DNA of 64,000 bases from an uncultured delta proteobacterium (GTDB lineage Bacteria > Desulfobacterota > Desulfuromonadia > Desulfuromonadales > BM103): positions 50,410 to 114,409 of the forward strand of contig CAVQRZ010000026.1 of NCBI GenBank assembly GCA_963715335.1. The letters run 5' to 3'. The notes beneath the pieces were generated by a model. That model worked only from the letters and a program-made list of their open reading frames with translations, searched no databases and was not told the DNA's origin. Shown here piece after piece: positions 57,401 to 63,994 of this stretch (position 1 is the first letter of the stretch; every line of letters begins with the position of its first letter). The position numbers were made by a program, and so were the translations under genes.

Positions 57401-57489
57401 AATGCCGGCATAATCTTGTCCGACTGGTTAATCAAGGTCATCCGTCCCATCTCAATACCATTTTAATTATCCGGTGCTATAGTTTGTCG

Positions 57490-58467
57490 ATGAAGAATCT
57501 CGCACGATGGTCTTTGCTGCTGACATTTATTTTCCCGTTGTTTCCCCAGGGCGCGCTGGCGCAAGGGGCGCCGCAGGATTTTGCGGCCTGGCTTGAACTT
57601 TTGCGTGTGGATGCCCGTTCTGCAGGGATTTCGGAAAAGACCTTGAATGCGGCCCTGGGCGATCTTGACGCACCAGATCCCCAGGTGTACGAACGCGATC
57701 AAAATCAGCCGGAAAAGACGGTGTCGCTGCAGGCTTATGTCGCCACCAGGGTCAGTCAGGAGCGCATCGACGAAGGGCGCCTGATGCTGCGTCGCTACGC
57801 CACCTGGCTGGCCCGCATCGAACGGCAGTACCGGGTGCAAAAGCGTTTCATCGTTGCACTTTGGGGGATTGAGAGCAGCTACGGTCGGCACGTCGGCGAG
57901 CATCCTGTGATTCCGGCACTGGTCACCCTGGCTTATGACGGGCGGCGTGGGGATTACTTTCGCAATGAGTTGCTTGAGGCGCTGAGAATCCTCGACGCAG
58001 GACATGTCTCTTTGCCGCGTTTGCAAGGTTCCTGGGCGGGGGCGATGGGGCCTTTCCAGTTCATGCCGTCCTCTTATCGCCACTATGCAGTCGACGCTGA
58101 CGGCGACGGTCGCATCAATATCTGGGGATCAGTCCCCGATGCGCTGGCCTCGGCGGCCAATTACCTTGCAAAAGTCGGCTGGAAGAACGATCAAACCTGG
58201 GGTCGAGCCGTTAAACTGCCCGACGAGTTTGATTCTTCAGTAAAAGGTCTGGAAACCCGGTTGCCGCTGTCGCGCTGGCAGGCTCTCGGTGTACGCTGCA
58301 GCAATGGCAGCGCACTGCCTCGCCGCAATCTGCAGGCCTCGCTGATTATTGCCGATGGTCAACCCGCACCGGCCTATCTGGTCTACGACAATTTTCGGGC
58401 CCTGCGTCGCTGGAACCGTTCCAATTCTTTTGCTGTTGCGGTTGGGACCCTTGCCGACAGTTATTGA
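57490..58467 (+). CDS. Lytic murein transglycosylase (MltB/Slt35 family)
   Basis: Signal peptide; DQNQPE, ALWGIESSYG, GSWAGAMGPFQFMPSSY, AVDADGDGRINIW, SAANYL, WNRS. Confidence 0.92.
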   Translation: MKNLARWSLLLTFIFPLFPQGALAQGAPQDFAAWLELLRVDARSAGISEKTLNAALGDLDAPDPQVYERDQNQPEKTVSLQAYVATRVSQERIDEGRLMLRRYATWLARIERQYRVQKRFIVALWGIESSYGRHVGEHPVIPALVTLAYDGRRGDYFRNELLEALRILDAGHVSLPRLQGSWAGAMGPFQFMPSSYRHYAVDADGDGRINIWGSVPDALASAANYLAKVGWKNDQTWGRAVKLPDEFDSSVKGLETRLPLSRWQALGVRCSNGSALPRRNLQASLIIADGQPAPAYLVYDNFRALRRWNRSNSFAVAVGTLADSY

Positions 58468-58581
58468 CTGCAGTGAAACCAAGGGGATCCGCACGAGCCA
58501 CGAAAAAGTTTCGCCTCGCTCTGTTCAGCGACGAGTGATTTGGTAAGATGATATTCCTATCAGGCCTTATGAGAGGTGCCT

Positions 58582-60039
58582 ATGATCAAACCTGACCCTA
58601 TGCCGATCGCCAAAACCGATGAATTCCTCGGTCTGCTGCCGCGCATGGCCAATCGCCATGGCCTGATTGCCGGGGCGACGGGAACCGGCAAAACCGTGAC
58701 CTTGCGGGTTTTTGCGGAGCATTTCAGCCGTATCGGTGTGCCGGTCTTCATGGCCGATGTCAAAGGAGACCTCTCGGGACTGGCAAAAGCCGGTGGCGAC
58801 CACCCCAAGGTCATGGAACGCGTCGAGACTCTGGGACTCAATGACTTCGTGCCACAGGGCTTTCCCGTCGTTTTCTGGGACTTGTTCGGGGAGCAGGGAC
58901 ATCCGGTTCGAACCACCGTCTCAGACATGGGGCCACTTCTCCTGGCTCGCTTGCTCGACCTCAATCCGACCCAGGCCGGTATCCTCACCCTGGTGTTCAA
59001 GGTTGCTGACGACCAGGGCCTGCTGCTGCTCGATCTCGAGGACCTCCAGGCCATGGTCCGTTTTGTCGGCGACAATGCCAGGGAGCTGCGCACGCAATAC
59101 GGCAACATCTCCACGGCCAGTATCGGCGCCATCCAACGGTCGTTGCTGACCCTGGAACAACAGGGTGCGGAAGACTTCTTCGGCGAACCGGCCCTGAACC
59201 TTGACGATCTCATGCAGACCGGGCCCGGCGGCCTCGGCGTGATCAATATCCTTGCTGCTGACCGCCTGATCCAGACCCCGAAAATATACGCAACCTTCCT
59301 GCTCTGGCTGATCGCAGAACTCTTTGAACAGCTCCCCGAGGTCGGCGACCCGGACAAGCCTCGCATCGTGTTTTTCTTCGATGAGGCCCATCTGCTCTTT
59401 GATGACCCGCCGAAAGCGTTGCTCGACAAGATTGAACAGGTCGTCCGCCTGATCCGCTCGAAAGGTGTCGGTGTCTATTTTGTCTCCCAGAATCCGCTCG
59501 ACGTTCCGGACGCCATCCTCGGCCAGCTTGGCAACCGGGTTCAGCACGCCCTGCGGGCCTTCACGCCGCGCGACCAGAAAGCCGTCCGTGCAGCCGCACA
59601 GACCTTTCGGCCCAACCCGCCGCTGGATGTCGAGCAGGTGATCATGGAGCTTGGCGTCGGCGAGGCGCTGGTCTCTTTTCTGGACGCGAAAGGGATTCCG
59701 ACCCCGGTGGAACGCGCTCTGATCTGCCCGCCCGCCAGCCGCCTGCACCCGCTTGATTTCGAGGAGCGCAAACAGGTGCGTGCAGGATCTATCGTCGGTG
59801 ACTTCTATGATCAGGCGATTGACCGGGAATCGGCTTATGAGCAGCTGGCGGCGAAGGCCCGACAACAGGCAGCGGAAACCCCACCACCGGCCAGTCGCAG
59901 CCGTGCGAAGCAGTCCAATTCAATGGGCGATCTTCTCGAAGCCGCAGGCAAAAGCGCCGCCCGCTCAATCGGCACCCAGGTCGGTCGCCAGATCATGCGC
60001 GGCGTGCTTGGCTCGCTCTTTGGCAAGGGGCGCTGGTAA
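58582..60039 (+). CDS. HerA-like ATPase (YjgR/DUF853 family)
   Basis: [15 protein letters not shown]alker A, FFFDEAH Walker [26 protein letters not shown]. Confidence 0.9.
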
Positions 60040-60050
60040 CGCACAGCAGG

Positions 60051-60752
60051 TCAGAGCTCAACCGGCAAAAATTCTTCCTGTGACATCAGCTCCCAGCTGA
60101 TCTTTTCATCAAGAGGTTCAGACGAAAACAACCAGGAGTTTGCCGAGAACGCTTTGTAGAGAGAGTAGTAGCCCGGTTCCCTGGCGAAATCACGATAAGC
60201 AAATAATTTTACGCCATCGCTGAACAGGCAATTCAGCGCCGAATACTTGTGTTTCTGCTTGATCACCGAAACCGTCTCAAGGAACGCCCGGCCCAGGTCC
60301 TGAGCCTTGCTGCTCATCACGTGGTAAAAGAACACCTCTGTATCGCGGGCATCTGCACCGAGCCCCGGTCTCTTGATGGCGGGGATCAGCTTCTGGTAGT
60401 CATAGACCACGCCGTTATGAAAAAACACGGTGTTGTCGAGATGGAAAGGGTGGGCGTGCCGGGTGCTGGAGGTGTTTGCCCAGGCGGATTTGCGCAGGTG
60501 CAGGATCATGACCGGCGAAGTCTTTGCCGCGCTCAGGATCCGGATAACCTGGTCGGTCTCTTCCAGAAGGTTGACGCCGCTCTTATGAACGACCAGAGCC
60601 CCCTCCCGGTAGTAGGCCAACCCCCAGCCATCCGCGTGTCCGGGAGGATCTTCGGCCATGACCACGCCGCTGCGTGCGAGCTCGCAGAACCGCGCAACGA
60701 TTTGCCGGTGCCTGGAGTAGTCGAAATTGGTGATACCGAGAACCCTGCACAT
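60051..60752 (-). CDS. Stand-alone class II glutamine amidotransferase / Ntn amidohydrolase (YafJ/EgtC/Dug3-like)
   Basis: N-terminal MC nucleophile, HADGWG, HLRKS, HPF, HNG, DTE. Confidence 0.88.
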   Translation of the reverse strand: MCRVLGITNFDYSRHRQIVARFCELARSGVVMAEDPPGHADGWGLAYYREGALVVHKSGVNLLEETDQVIRILSAAKTSPVMILHLRKSAWANTSSTRHAHPFHLDNTVFFHNGVVYDYQKLIPAIKRPGLGADARDTEVFFYHVMSSKAQDLGRAFLETVSVIKQKHKYSALNCLFSDGVKLFAYRDFAREPGYYSLYKAFSANSWLFSSEPLDEKISWELMSQEEFLPVEL

Positions 60753-61283
60753 CTAGAAAAACCACCTTGCAACGGCAACCGCCACCACGATGCCGATAAA
60801 ATCCGCAACCAGGCAGACCGGCACAAGGTAACGGGTTTTCTTGATACTGACAGCGCCAAGGTAGACCGCCAGCACGTAAAAAGTGGTTTCGGCGCTGCCC
60901 ATGATGATGGCCGACATATAGGTGGCAATGGAGTCGGCGCCGGTGGTCTTGACGATGTCCGTAAACAGCGCGGTCGAGGCGCTTCCGGAGAGCGGCTTGA
61001 CGATCGCCATGGAGACGGCCTCGATCGGGATATCCAGGAAAGCAAAAACGCTGTAAAAGGCATCCCTGACATAGTCGAAAGCGCCTGAGGCCTGGAACCC
61101 CTTGATGGCGACGAAGATGGTTAAAAGATAAGGGAAAATATTCAGGATAATTGCCGGTCCCTGTTTGGCTCCGGCAACAAAGGAGTCATACACCCTGACT
61201 TTCTTGAAGGTCCCGTACAGGACCGTAAAGAGAATGAACAGCGGGATAATCAGCAGCGATACGTATTCTACGTACGATATCAT
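60753..61283 (-). CDS. spmB: SpmB-family (gate domain) membrane protein
   Basis: VYDSFVAGAKQG, KPLSGSAS, IMGSAETTFYVLAVYLGAVSIKKTRY. Confidence 0.88.
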   Translation of the reverse strand: MISYVEYVSLLIIPLFILFTVLYGTFKKVRVYDSFVAGAKQGPAIILNIFPYLLTIFVAIKGFQASGAFDYVRDAFYSVFAFLDIPIEAVSMAIVKPLSGSASTALFTDIVKTTGADSIATYMSAIIMGSAETTFYVLAVYLGAVSIKKTRYLVPVCLVADFIGIVVAVAVARWFF

Positions 61284-61855
61284 CTGAAAATCTTCCTGAA
61301 CGCGGCCAGGACCAGCAGCGCCGTCATGGTCGAAATTGCGGTGGCGATCAGCACCGGAAGCACGACCGCAGCCGGATTCCGGTGTCCGTAGTTGGCCAGG
61401 ATGCCGATTACCGAAAACGGGATCAACTGGATGCTGGCGGTGTTGATGACGATGAACGTCATCATCTCGGGCGTAATGGCCCCTTTGTCTTCATTCAGCG
61501 CATCGAGTTCCTGCATGGCCTTGATCCCCAGCGGTGTGGCCGCGTTGCCGAGCCCGAACAGGTTGGCCAGGACATTCAGGGTGATCGCTGTAATCGAAGG
61601 GTGATCACCGGGGATGTTCCTGAACAGCCGGGAGATGATCGGTCTGAACAGATGGGCGATCCGGTAGATCAGACCCGAGTCCTCCAGGATCCTGGTGATC
61701 CCGAGCCAGACCGAGACGATGCCAAGGAGATACAGCGAGATCTCCACCGCCGATTTTGCGCCGTCGAAAATGGACTTGGTAAACGCCTCCAGGTTGCCGG
61801 TAAAAATGGCGAACACGATACTGACGCAAATCATGATCAACCAGAGGATATTCAT
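61280..61855 (-). CDS. spmA: SpmA-family (nucleoside recognition/gate domain) membrane protein
   Basis: AKSAVEI, WLGI, ANLFGLGNAATPLGIKAMQEL, INTASIQLIP. Confidence 0.9.
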   Translation of the reverse strand: MNILWLIMICVSIVFAIFTGNLEAFTKSIFDGAKSAVEISLYLLGIVSVWLGITRILEDSGLIYRIAHLFRPIISRLFRNIPGDHPSITAITLNVLANLFGLGNAATPLGIKAMQELDALNEDKGAITPEMMTFIVINTASIQLIPFSVIGILANYGHRNPAAVVLPVLIATAISTMTALLVLAAFRKIFR

Positions 61856-62718
61856 CGGTTGCCTCCGGGGAAAGACATTGTCCTGATCGTGAGCTGCTTG
61901 CGATCCGTATCCAGCTCGACTTCTGCACCGACAGGCAGGGTGATCTTGTTGGCGACATGGCCGATGTAAGGACAGTGAACCACCGGGAAGTCCAGCGCCA
62001 TTTGTGAAGCCAGGATGTCATAGACCTGCTTGCTCCTGATGCCGCGGAAATCGCCGAGGATGAGTCCGTTGAGACCTTTGAACCTTCCGGCAAGGACCCA
62101 CTGGGTCAGGTAGCGATCCACCTCGTGCAGACGTTCGTCGACATCTTCGAGAAACAGGATCGCATCGGTCGTATCGATCTCCCAGTCGGTACCGATCAGA
62201 GCGGACAGGGTGATGAGATTGCCCCCTTTCAGGGTCCCGACTGCGGCGCCGTGGTTGTAGACCCTGCAAGGGGCGCCTTTGAACAGGTTTTTTTGCGGGT
62301 AGCCTGCGACAGCGTTGAGCAGCGATCTGACCGTGAACGCCGTTGGCGCGTCCAGGTTGATCACCATCGGCGCATGCAGGGTCACCAGGCCAGTGCGTTC
62401 GTAGATTGGATTGAGCAGCGCGCTCAGGTCGCTGAACCCGGCGATCAGTTTGGGGTGTCTCTTGATGAGCTCGAAGTCGATGAACGGCAGGGACTTCATC
62501 GCGCTGTAGCCGCCGCGCAAGGCCAGCAGCATATCGATTCCGGGGTCTGCAAACGCCCCATGGATCTGGTTTGCCTTCTCCAGGGGCGAGGGAAGTGACT
62601 GCGGAAATTCCGGGTTGATGACGTTAAAACCCAACTTCGCGAGCTGCCTGAGCCCGGCGCCAAAGTCACGTTTCTTCTTGATCAAATAACTCGGCGTTAC
62701 AATGCAGACGTTATGCAA
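61852..62718 (-). CDS. LD-carboxypeptidase (peptidase S66, LdcA-like)
   Basis: RGGYS, GFSD (Ser nucleophile), GGNL, FLEDV (Glu), IGH (His), LPVG. Confidence 0.9.
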   Translation of the reverse strand: MHNVCIVTPSYLIKKKRDFGAGLRQLAKLGFNVINPEFPQSLPSPLEKANQIHGAFADPGIDMLLALRGGYSAMKSLPFIDFELIKRHPKLIAGFSDLSALLNPIYERTGLVTLHAPMVINLDAPTAFTVRSLLNAVAGYPQKNLFKGAPCRVYNHGAAVGTLKGGNLITLSALIGTDWEIDTTDAILFLEDVDERLHEVDRYLTQWVLAGRFKGLNGLILGDFRGIRSKQVYDILASQMALDFPVVHCPYIGHVANKITLPVGAEVELDTDRKQLTIRTMSFPGGNR

Positions 62719-62938: not shown

Positions 62939-63994
62939 ATGAGTATTCATCACAGGCCGATCGCTGAACGCGTTGAATGGCTACTCGACCTGGCCCGTCG
63001 CCACACCTCCGAATACCGCAGCCCGGAGGCCTGCCTGGCCCGGGAGCTCTACCTGGCGAAACACCCGACTGCCATTATCGTCCTCAAATGTATGGACGGC
63101 CGCATCAACATCCCCGTAGCCACCGGCACCCCTCCCGGGATCATTCAACCGATTCGGAACCTTGGCGGCATGTTTGACCTCGGCTGGCCGCACCTGGGCG
63201 AGGTCCTCGCCGAGAGCGTCCACCGCATGGTCGCCGCCGGTCGCCGGGTGCTGATCTTTATCACCTACCATTTCTCTCGCGGTGATGCCAATCGGGGCTG
63301 CGCCGGCTTCGCCTACGACACCTCGGCGGCCCTCGAACACTGCCGGGCCATCAAGCGGCAGGCCGAGCACATCTTCGGTGCCGGTCATGATACGGTCTAC
63401 CCGATCCTCTGCGGTTACGAAACCGATGAGGACGCCCTGCTGCTGCACGGCTTTAACGATGAAATCCTTGACCTTGCCAGCATTACCCAGGCTGACGCGC
63501 CCTCCCTCGGCCGTCGCCTGACCTCTCTCTGCCCTGACATGCCCGAGCAGATACGGCACGACCTGCTGCCGCTGCTTGAAGGGAACCTCAAGTGGATAGC
63601 CCAGGTGCGCGGCGCCAACCGGTCGCTCGATATCGAACACCGGGAGTGGATGATCTGCCTGGGGCGCGGTTTCGATTTCCTCCATACGCCCAACCTCGCC
63701 CTGATCATCGGCCCCTACAGCCCCGATCTGGCTGACCCGATCCGCAAGGCCGCCGGGATCATCGAAGCCAACATGCACGCGGGCCGGATCCCCGACGACG
63801 GCTTTCTGCTCTTCGCCTCGGTCCCCTACCAGGAGATCGGCATGGACCGGGCCCGCGCCGAGCTGAAATCCGAATTCCTCGCCGATTTCGCCGCAGAGGT
63901 CATTATCACCGAGTTTCCCGGGCTCGCAGAGCGTATGCACGTCCAGAAAGCGGTCCTCTCCTGGCGGTCGCGGGCCCTCGAATTACTCGATTGA
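62939..63994 (+). CDS. CsoSCA-like beta-class carbonic anhydrase
   Basis: SD GGGAGGAG; KCMDGR, RNLGG, YHFSRGDANRGCAGF (C-x-D-x-R plus H-x9-C zinc ligands). Confidence 0.7.
   Translation: MSIHHRPIAERVEWLLDLARRHTSEYRSPEACLARELYLAKHPTAIIVLKCMDGRINIPVATGTPPGIIQPIRNLGGMFDLGWPHLGEVLAESVHRMVAAGRRVLIFITYHFSRGDANRGCAGFAYDTSAALEHCRAIKRQAEHIFGAGHDTVYPILCGYETDEDALLLHGFNDEILDLASITQADAPSLGRRLTSLCPDMPEQIRHDLLPLLEGNLKWIAQVRGANRSLDIEHREWMICLGRGFDFLHTPNLALIIGPYSPDLADPIRKAAGIIEANMHAGRIPDDGFLLFASVPYQEIGMDRARAELKSEFLADFAAEVIITEFPGLAERMHVQKAVLSWRSRALELLD

Follow-up and report, generated by a model that had tools for sequence, protein, structure and literature searches.

A four-gene operon in a 64,000-nucleotide stretch of DNA from an uncultured delta proteobacterium of the order Desulfuromonadales (assembly GCA_963715335.1, contig CAVQRZ010000026.1, positions 50,410 to 114,409; hereafter the window) encodes a peptidase of family S66, the membrane proteins SpmA and SpmB, and an N-terminal nucleophile (Ntn) amidohydrolase. 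We propose, at about an even chance, that the operon is an uptake and breakdown unit in which SpmAB imports a stem peptide of peptidoglycan, the S66 enzyme removes D-Ala, and the Ntn enzyme cuts the γ-D-glutamyl bond. That the operon has some role in the handling of cell-wall fragments is, in our judgment, probable. The clustering of the four genes is not due to chance, and their linkage to a family of AmiA-like amidases is independent evidence for a cell-wall substrate.

Structure and Conservation of the Operon

The four genes are intact open reading frames on the minus strand (Table 1). As a preliminary description of this DNA had reported, they are coupled by two ATGA overlaps, S66/spmA at 61852-55 and spmA/spmB at 61280-83, and by a zero-gap junction at which the TAG of spmB abuts the ATG of the Ntn gene (60753/60752). 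Base composition gave no hint of a recent foreign origin (gene GC of 0.53-0.58 compared with 0.52-0.59 for the contigs). Scans for promoters and terminators were at chance level (2 versus 1.3 expected and 3 versus 3.2 expected). In one metatranscriptome only two 151-base contigs mapped to the operon, one of them spanning the spmB/Ntn junction; because DNA carry-over is possible in such contigs, they are no evidence for co-transcription.

Table 1. Genes of the operon and a recurring cell-wall neighbor, in window coordinates
Feature	Position	Strand	Description
S66 peptidase gene	61852-62718	minus	288 amino acids, TTG start; Pfam Peptidase_S66 and S66C (PF02016/PF17676)
spmA	61280-61855	minus	191 amino acids; Pfam Gate
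spmB	60753-61283	minus	176 amino acids; Pfam Gate at 28 bits, just under the 29.6 cut-off
Ntn amidohydrolase gene	60051-60752	minus	233 amino acids; Pfam GATase_4
MltB-like lytic transglycosylase gene	57484-58467	plus	Pfam SLT_2; recurring neighbor, outside the operon

A close spmA (85-100% identity) is carried by 16 of 41 related genomes, and spmB and the Ntn gene follow in the same order in all 16. The S66 gene is kept in 15 of these loci; the sixteenth begins at a contig end, 57 bases before spmA. Among the 41 relatives S66 occurs in 15, every one of them an operon carrier. When GTDB species genomes were scanned with the Ntn protein, 85 relatives were confirmed, and 80 of them were kept (34 close and 46 distant). 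All four genes are present at 31 of the 34 close loci (59-83% identity), the remaining 3 being cut by contig ends, and the carriers include Geothermobacter hydrogeniphilus, Geomonas sp. Red32, and one Syntrophaceae metagenome-assembled genome. At the 46 distant loci neither spmA nor S66 was found. The set of 41 relatives and the set of 34 close loci overlap in some genomes. The conservation anticipated for the cluster is thus borne out in both sets.

Across a phylum sample of 401 genomes (91 SpmA-positive and 310 not), in which kin are not independent and many matches lie below curated cut-offs, S66 is found in 86 of the 91 SpmA-positive and in 150 of the 310 other genomes. A three-gene form, S66-spmA-spmB, was found at 8 of 60 further loci, all from one family; the 60 come from one same-genus genome and from 59 of the 89 other SpmA-positive genomes of the phylum. 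The S66 proteins of the three-gene form group with those of the operon type (100/99 support).

The host genome (3.3 Mb) is rated 100% complete with 6.9% contamination, and Spo0A was not found in it. This agrees with the earlier presumption of a non-sporulating host and leaves SpmA and SpmB there without the spore-core-dehydration role.

The S66 Peptidase

Ser96, Glu191, and His254 of the S66 protein align with Ser106, Glu200, and His270 of Escherichia coli LdcA and are invariant in 28 of 28 aligned rows; Cys2 of the Ntn protein is invariant in 37 of 37, so that the catalytic motifs of both enzymes, previously described as intact, are so. Arg68 of the RGGY motif is Arg in 27 of the 28 rows and Ile in MccF only. 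Treating this Arg and a short inter-domain linker as marks of LdcA is our own inference from the alignment. All 13 operon-type S66 rows lack an insertion of 15 residues that plasmid MccF has; we take this Trp-containing insertion in the catalytic loop to be an MccF feature. The protein has no hydrophobic segment and is predicted to be a cytoplasmic LdcA-like serine carboxypeptidase that would remove D-Ala from stem peptides, in agreement with the LdcA-type assignment made before. By its motifs it appears LdcA-like, yet it is no LdcA equivalog. Its identity is 27.5% to E. coli LdcA and 26.7% to MccF. In the S66 tree it lies, with other spmAB-linked S66 proteins, in a long-branch clade of its own (100/99 support); the LdcA and MccF branches are both long and weakly supported, and the tree favors neither as its ancestry.

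An MccF-type assignment was considered and is disfavored by Arg68, where MccF has Ile, and by the absence of the MccF insertion. The reference MccF gene adjoins ThiF, MFS, and GNAT genes, and no such family recurs in 35 operon flanks.

SpmA and SpmB

SpmA and SpmB are predicted to be the N- and C-terminal halves of one two-part, elevator-type secondary transporter. The adjacent pair is homologous to Firmicute proteins, with a conserved GLGNAATP motif. At 34 of 59 phylum loci spmA and spmB are fused into one open reading frame, which supports their pairing. SpmA has four hydrophobic segments, and its look-alikes in the Atlas are named spore maturation protein A; the Atlas search returned SpmA-like clusters only and no structure. 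SpmB matches the YjiG family PRK10519 weakly, and an SpmAB profile matched E. coli YjiG at a probability of 95.7 and YjiH at 6.1.

The fold was modeled on a fused homolog whose halves are 47% and 38% identical to those of the window, not on the window pair itself (52-row alignment; predicted local distance difference test score (pLDDT) 90.4, predicted template modeling score 0.86). Foldseek gave weak matches (best E value 1.6e-4, template modeling (TM) score ∼0.4), nearly all of them to secondary transporters that we take to be of the elevator class. In a second structure comparison CNT ranked first (Z 14.4, root mean square deviation 4.1, 266 residues aligned, 13% identity), followed by ArsB, DASS, AbgT, and TRAP; 73 chains reached Z ≥ 8, and all 50 entries among the matches listed are secondary transporters. 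Since helical bundles can reach Z ∼13 by chance, the transporter class is better supported than any single best match. A profile search of the PDB with SpmAB returned no match, CNT included. The predicted fold of the fused homolog supports the transporter function assigned to SpmAB in the preliminary description but gives neither substrate nor direction.

The passages concerned of a 2012 paper describe SpmA/B as biochemically uncharacterized (PMC3533761), and those of a 2022 paper state their mechanism as unknown (10.1101/2022.02.25.481979). YjiG function is still called elusive in the corresponding part of PMC13311989. In the open-access literature, which covers few subscription journals, we found no SpmAB substrate and no description of this operon.

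The Ntn Amidohydrolase

The Ntn protein is predicted to be a stand-alone class II amidohydrolase of the YafJ/PA1307/EgtC kind and a γ-glutamyl amide hydrolase. Its profile matches 1TE5 (PA1307), 3MDN, and EgtC, and profile and model both point to PA1307, SPO2029, and EgtC. The best fold match of the model (pLDDT 91) is EgtC, at a TM score of 0.70-0.74. Cys2, Arg87, Gly114, and Asp137 are invariant in 37 rows and Asn113 is nearly so; the protein thus has the N-terminal Cys, the Arg, the Asn-Gly oxyanion hole, the Asp, and the Ntn fold of class II. It scored 55.5 bits on the EgtC model TIGR03442, far below the cut-off of 218.65, and no egt neighbors recur in the operon flanks.

The fold, the Cys2 nucleophile, and the Arg, Asn-Gly, and Asp positions are shared with the stand-alone enzymes EgtC, Dug3, and YafJ, but the usual HxRxATxG motif is replaced here by HLRKSAW. 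This motif is specific to the clade and occurs in 119 of 120 homologs among the matches listed (of 401 found), with HLRKAAW in the other one. In the distant rows position 90 is Thr in 17 of 21 and position 91 is Trp in none of 21. Such a remodeled glutamyl pocket fits, without proving, a D-glutamyl substrate. We take the GlmS equivalents of the Arg and the Asp, placed by alignment, to hold the α-carboxyl and α-amino groups of glutamine; their retention here would favor a substrate whose glutamyl amino group is free, for instance γ-D-Glu-meso-diaminopimelate (γ-D-Glu-mDAP).

The host has a second stand-alone class II Ntn hydrolase (G000:C1:173788-174273), with the usual HVRATS motif.

Cell-wall Genes Near the Operon

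The host encodes an AmiA-like amidase (DUF1460, PF07313) with an N-terminal hydrophobic segment on another contig. Elsewhere the family lies in the flank of the operon at 12 of 34 loci, or 11 of the 25 with at least 1 kb of sequence upstream of S66. Seven of these genes are divergent and five co-oriented, and one ends 4 bases before S66. The amidase is present in 15 of 16 operon genomes (in one as a weak contig-edge fragment, in one in pieces) and in 8 of the 25 others; outside the family of the host the counts are 4 of 5 and 0 of 11. In two Legionella records, too, a gene of this amidase family is oriented divergently from spmAB.

The next commonest neighbor is an MltB-like transglycosylase, found at 5 of 35 operon loci including this window. 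MltB-class enzymes make anhydro-muropeptides that AmiA-like amidases cut. According to the pertinent part of PMC4600125, AmiA of Bacteroides cuts GlcNAc-anhMurNAc-peptide, yielding the disaccharide and the stem peptide.

In Brevibacillus, dacB precedes spmAB. A plasmid collection gave 11 matches, 10 of which were examined: two are the Legionella loci with amidase, one has dacB, one has YkuD genes, one is divergent from mraZ, and five are without an identifiable wall neighbor. In the YkuD locus (Phocaeicola massiliensis, L032:1937-3752), fused spmAB is immediately preceded by two genes for L,D-transpeptidases of the YkuD family.

Metagenomes were scanned in 2 of 64 parts, and the best 80 of 595 relatives were kept; 225 neighboring open reading frames at 76 loci, predicted by a crude caller, yielded 169 cluster representatives, which were scanned. 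Nine loci have wall genes: S66 (L227), a PBP4-type carboxypeptidase (3), a wall hydrolase, NlpC/P60, SLT, MurJ, and a MurU-like gene. The S66 of L227 comes from a different clade and so represents a separate pairing of S66 with spmAB.

The PBP4-type D-Ala-D-Ala carboxypeptidase genes are divergent from fused spmAB at three metagenome loci (set L243, L268, L292, L272). AmgK-like and MurU-like genes, both below cut-off, lie downstream in L268 and L272. A Mur-ligase-family gene before spmAB in L133 was considered as a cell-wall neighbor and proved to be FolC. Two SpmA-positive genomes (G314:C20 and G072:C12, loci L214 and L215) have no S66, ampG, or mpl match, yet an AmiA-like amidase is present; together with G204 they are three of the five SpmA genomes without S66.

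Recycling Genes of the Host

Genes of the AmpG/Mpl recycling pathway, namely ampG, nagZ (GH3), ampD (Amidase_2), anmK, and mpl, were not found in the host genome. The best open reading frame for Mpl reached 209 bits against a cut-off of 389 and is, we presume, MurC. M14/MpaA, GGT, and GshA were likewise not found in the host, whose sole GshB-family match we take to be RimK, nor was an Ala-Glu epimerase, for which the sole match is another enzyme, presumably enolase; these three names were recognized by us and are not database calls. Two NlpC/P60 proteins, whose N-termini resemble those of lipoproteins, are encoded in the host genome. Neither ampG nor mpl was found in any of the 41 relatives, with or without the operon, and on anticorrelation these relatives are therefore uninformative.

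An mpl match is also absent from all eight genomes with the three-gene form. Coupling of S66 to spmAB in such genomes fits a breakdown of the peptide to amino acids, as has been proposed for the Mpl-less Caulobacter in the relevant passages of PMC13046382.

Proposed Pathway

In the pathway that we propose, an exported AmiA-like amidase would split GlcNAc-anhMurNAc-peptide in the periplasm, an activity published for the family and presumed for this copy. SpmA and SpmB would together form one ion-coupled elevator transporter that moves the tetrapeptide, or a shorter piece, inward; here the fold is predicted, and substrate and direction are conjectured. The S66 LD-carboxypeptidase, which has the motifs for this reaction, would then release D-Ala. 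The Ntn enzyme would split γ-D-Glu from mDAP, more probably on γ-D-Glu-mDAP than on the Ala-capped tripeptide, and this is the weakest step. The products mDAP, D-Glu, and Ala may be reused as amino acids, because no Mpl was found, and the sugar moiety would stay outside. The lack of an Mpl match also means that the route would be catabolic rather than a salvage by re-ligation.

A wider form of the proposal is more tentative, and we rate it somewhat below an even chance. SpmAB may be a widespread, unrecognized family of secondary importers for stem peptides, and the operon a complete route (AmiA amidase, SpmAB, LD-carboxypeptidase, and a D-glutamyl-specific Ntn enzyme) that dispenses with an ABC transporter, Mpl, MpaA/YkfC, and epimerase. 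In endospore formers SpmAB would then clear the cortex peptides released by amidases, which would explain the failure of core dehydration in spmAB mutants. The core sporulation genes include spmA and spmB, and the operon offers a specific candidate substrate class for their products and a ready assay. If the proposal is true, cell-wall recycling gains a new family of transporters, the YafJ-like Ntn hydrolases gain a first substrate among wall peptides, and there is a route by which bacteria that lack AmpG and Mpl can regain diaminopimelate from their own walls or from those of neighbors.

Evidence Against the Proposal

A number of observations weigh against an uptake and breakdown unit for stem peptides. 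For the S66 enzyme, the score on the NCBIfam LdcA equivalog model is 115.7 bits (cut-off 378), compared with 120.3 for MccF, and the best PDB sequence matches are MccF-like proteins (E value 1.5e-27), followed by LdcA (4.7e-20). The fold closest to fused SpmAB is that of a nucleoside transporter (CNT), and the host has one family-5 ABC binding protein, an alternative candidate for the peptide importer. We know of no D-glutamyl-specific class II Ntn enzyme. Cleavage of the intact Ala-γ-D-Glu-mDAP by the Ntn protein is doubtful because the Asp that would bind a free α-amino group is retained, and the operon has no gene for the step that removes alanine.

Genome context adds further points. The operon is lacking from 25 of the 41 relatives and is thus dispensable. 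At the 60 further loci S66 adjoins spmAB only in the 8 of the three-gene form, and most spmAB loci have unrelated neighbors. A cell-wall gene lies within two genes of spmAB at only the 9 of 80 metagenome loci given above, a count with no background rate for comparison. PF07313 is absent from all eight genomes with the three-gene form. A phylum-wide co-occurrence of SpmA with PF07313 was considered and is rejected: the family is present in 3 of 80 SpmA-positive compared with 14 of 80 randomly drawn SpmA-negative genomes, 9 of 89 SpmA-positive genomes from over-represented families having been left out beforehand.

Finally, the cluster had been expected to anticorrelate with ampG and mpl, and in the phylum sample the opposite holds. 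Matches of the AmpG kind (E value 1e-30) occur in 70 of 91 SpmA-positive and 173 of 310 other genomes, and mpl-like matches (E value 1e-90) in 70 of 91 and 133 of 310. In E. coli, according to the pertinent part of PMC10622912, MppA/Opp carries freed peptides only and coexists with AmpG. The association of SpmA with ampG and mpl makes SpmAB look like a counterpart of Opp/MppA, for freed peptides, and not of AmpG. The earlier idea of an alternative to AmpG/Opp salvage therefore holds in part: AmpG and Mpl were found neither in the host nor in the 41 relatives, but the phylum pattern is Opp/MppA-like and the route would be catabolic.

Alternative Explanations

The likeliest alternative, itself improbable, retains a wall unit in which SpmAB carries D-alanine, or dipeptides (mDAP-D-Ala, Ala-D-Glu), made by periplasmic carboxypeptidases and NlpC/P60 endopeptidases. 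Release of D-Ala is common to the recurring neighbors DacB, S66, and the PBP4-type S13 enzyme (at 3 of 80 metagenome loci), an alanine dehydrogenase gene follows spmAB at 2 of 80 metagenome loci, the host has the two lipoprotein-like NlpC/P60 proteins, and the transporters matched by fold carry small solutes. However, import of free D-Ala leaves the coupling to S66 and Ntn and the linkage to the amidase unexplained, and a cytoplasmic S66 enzyme must act on a peptide that is already inside.

It is improbable that the unit imports and hydrolyzes an isopeptide or γ-glutamyl compound from outside the wall (glutathione-like, isoaspartyl, or a γ-glutamyl amide), after the manner of E. coli yjiH-yjiG-iadA, in which yjiHG precedes the isoaspartyl dipeptidase gene iadA. 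Arg87 and Asp137 are retained in the Ntn enzyme, whose nearest fold match, EgtC, takes off an L-glutamyl group (PMC9103826, in the part concerned). In L281 spmAB is followed by a gene of the asparaginase_2 family, and in L251 it is preceded by a γ-glutamyl cyclotransferase gene. Yet the S66 gene and the amidase would be left unexplained, and the pocket motif of the Ntn enzyme is not the common one. Glutathione turnover in particular is disfavored, as the host search found neither GshA nor GGT and its one GshB-family match reads as RimK.

Slightly less probable again is that SpmAB exports D-amino acids or peptide waste from the two hydrolases. Direction is unreadable from the fold, the matched folds include the efflux members ArsB and MtrF, and without Mpl there is less to gain from importing whole peptides. 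However, as the host search found no AmpG, S66 would depend on some other importer, for which the family-5 ABC system is the sole candidate.

Least probable is a unit for nucleosides or aminoacyl-nucleotide antibiotics, composed of an MccF-like detoxifying peptidase and a CNT-like transporter: CNTs are the top fold matches and MccF-like proteins the top PDB sequence matches, but Arg68 stands where MccF has Ile, the Trp-containing MccF insertion is absent, identity to CNT is 13%, and the amidase linkage is unexplained.

Comparison with Known Systems

The logic of a peptide importer joined to an LD-carboxypeptidase and a γ-D-glutamyl amidase is already known; what the stem-peptide proposal would add to it are a new family of transporters and, as a further new component, the Ntn enzyme. 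The E. coli MppA/OppBCDF, LdcA, and Mpl/MpaA route, as set out in the relevant passages of PMC10622912, takes up freed stem peptides through an importer of their own, which relies on amidases of the periplasm and occurs alongside AmpG, and has a cytoplasmic LdcA that trims D-Ala. The importer here is predicted to be a secondary transporter encoded by two genes, in place of an ABC system; the host search found neither Mpl nor MpaA; and the γ-D-glutamyl cutter would be an Ntn enzyme rather than a zinc amidase. In Bacteroides, an exported cysteine amidase, AmiA (DUF1460), frees stem peptides for the γ-D-Glu-mDAP amidase YkfC, an NlpC/P60 enzyme that needs an N-terminal L-Ala and cannot cut γ-D-Glu-mDAP (PMC4600125, in the parts that treat these enzymes). 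Bacteroidota likewise carry fused spmAB. Here, in contrast, the candidate is a cytoplasmic Ntn enzyme, and S66 is present.

The Bacillus dacB-spmA-spmB genes are true homologs (the window proteins are 46% and 43% identical to the Brevibacillus copies) and lie downstream of a D-Ala-releasing carboxypeptidase gene; unlike the present operon, they form a sporulation operon with an exported DD-carboxypeptidase, whereas the host here lacks a detectable Spo0A. The B. subtilis operon dppABCDE-ykfABCD combines a transporter, an S66 LD-carboxypeptidase, and a γ-D-Glu-mDAP peptidase. It uses an ABC transporter, the NlpC/P60 enzyme YkfC, and the epimerase YkfB, the last of which has no counterpart among the Ala-Glu epimerase matches of our host. 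E. coli yjiH-yjiG-iadA is alike in that the genes for a Gate-domain membrane pair stand together with one for a cytoplasmic enzyme that hydrolyzes an unusual peptide bond, and differs in its distance, evident from the YjiG and YjiH probabilities given above, and in its partner, an isoaspartyl dipeptidase.

Other Features of the Locus

On the plus strand of the window, a gene for a HerA_C-family ATPase (58576-60039) converges on the operon across an 11-base gap; it does not recur in operon flanks. Divergent from the operon, also on the plus strand, is a gene (62939-63994) for a 351-residue homolog of the carboxysome-shell-type carbonic anhydrase, with a weak match to Pfam CsoSCA_cat and a score below the TIGR02701 cut-off; it is not found in as many as three operon flanks.

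In the same-genus genome (L172, G002:C9) the operon is absent, and a distant spmA lies in three pieces beside spmB. In one family a conserved protein of ∼380 residues without a Pfam match is encoded upstream of spmAB (L134, L141, L156, and L163). At three phylum loci (L126:3356-4465 and its cluster mates L128 and L120) a gene for a histone-deacetylase-family amidohydrolase directly follows spmB, in the position of the Ntn gene, with gaps of 25, 26, and 100 bases; two of the three loci are S66-spmAB operons.

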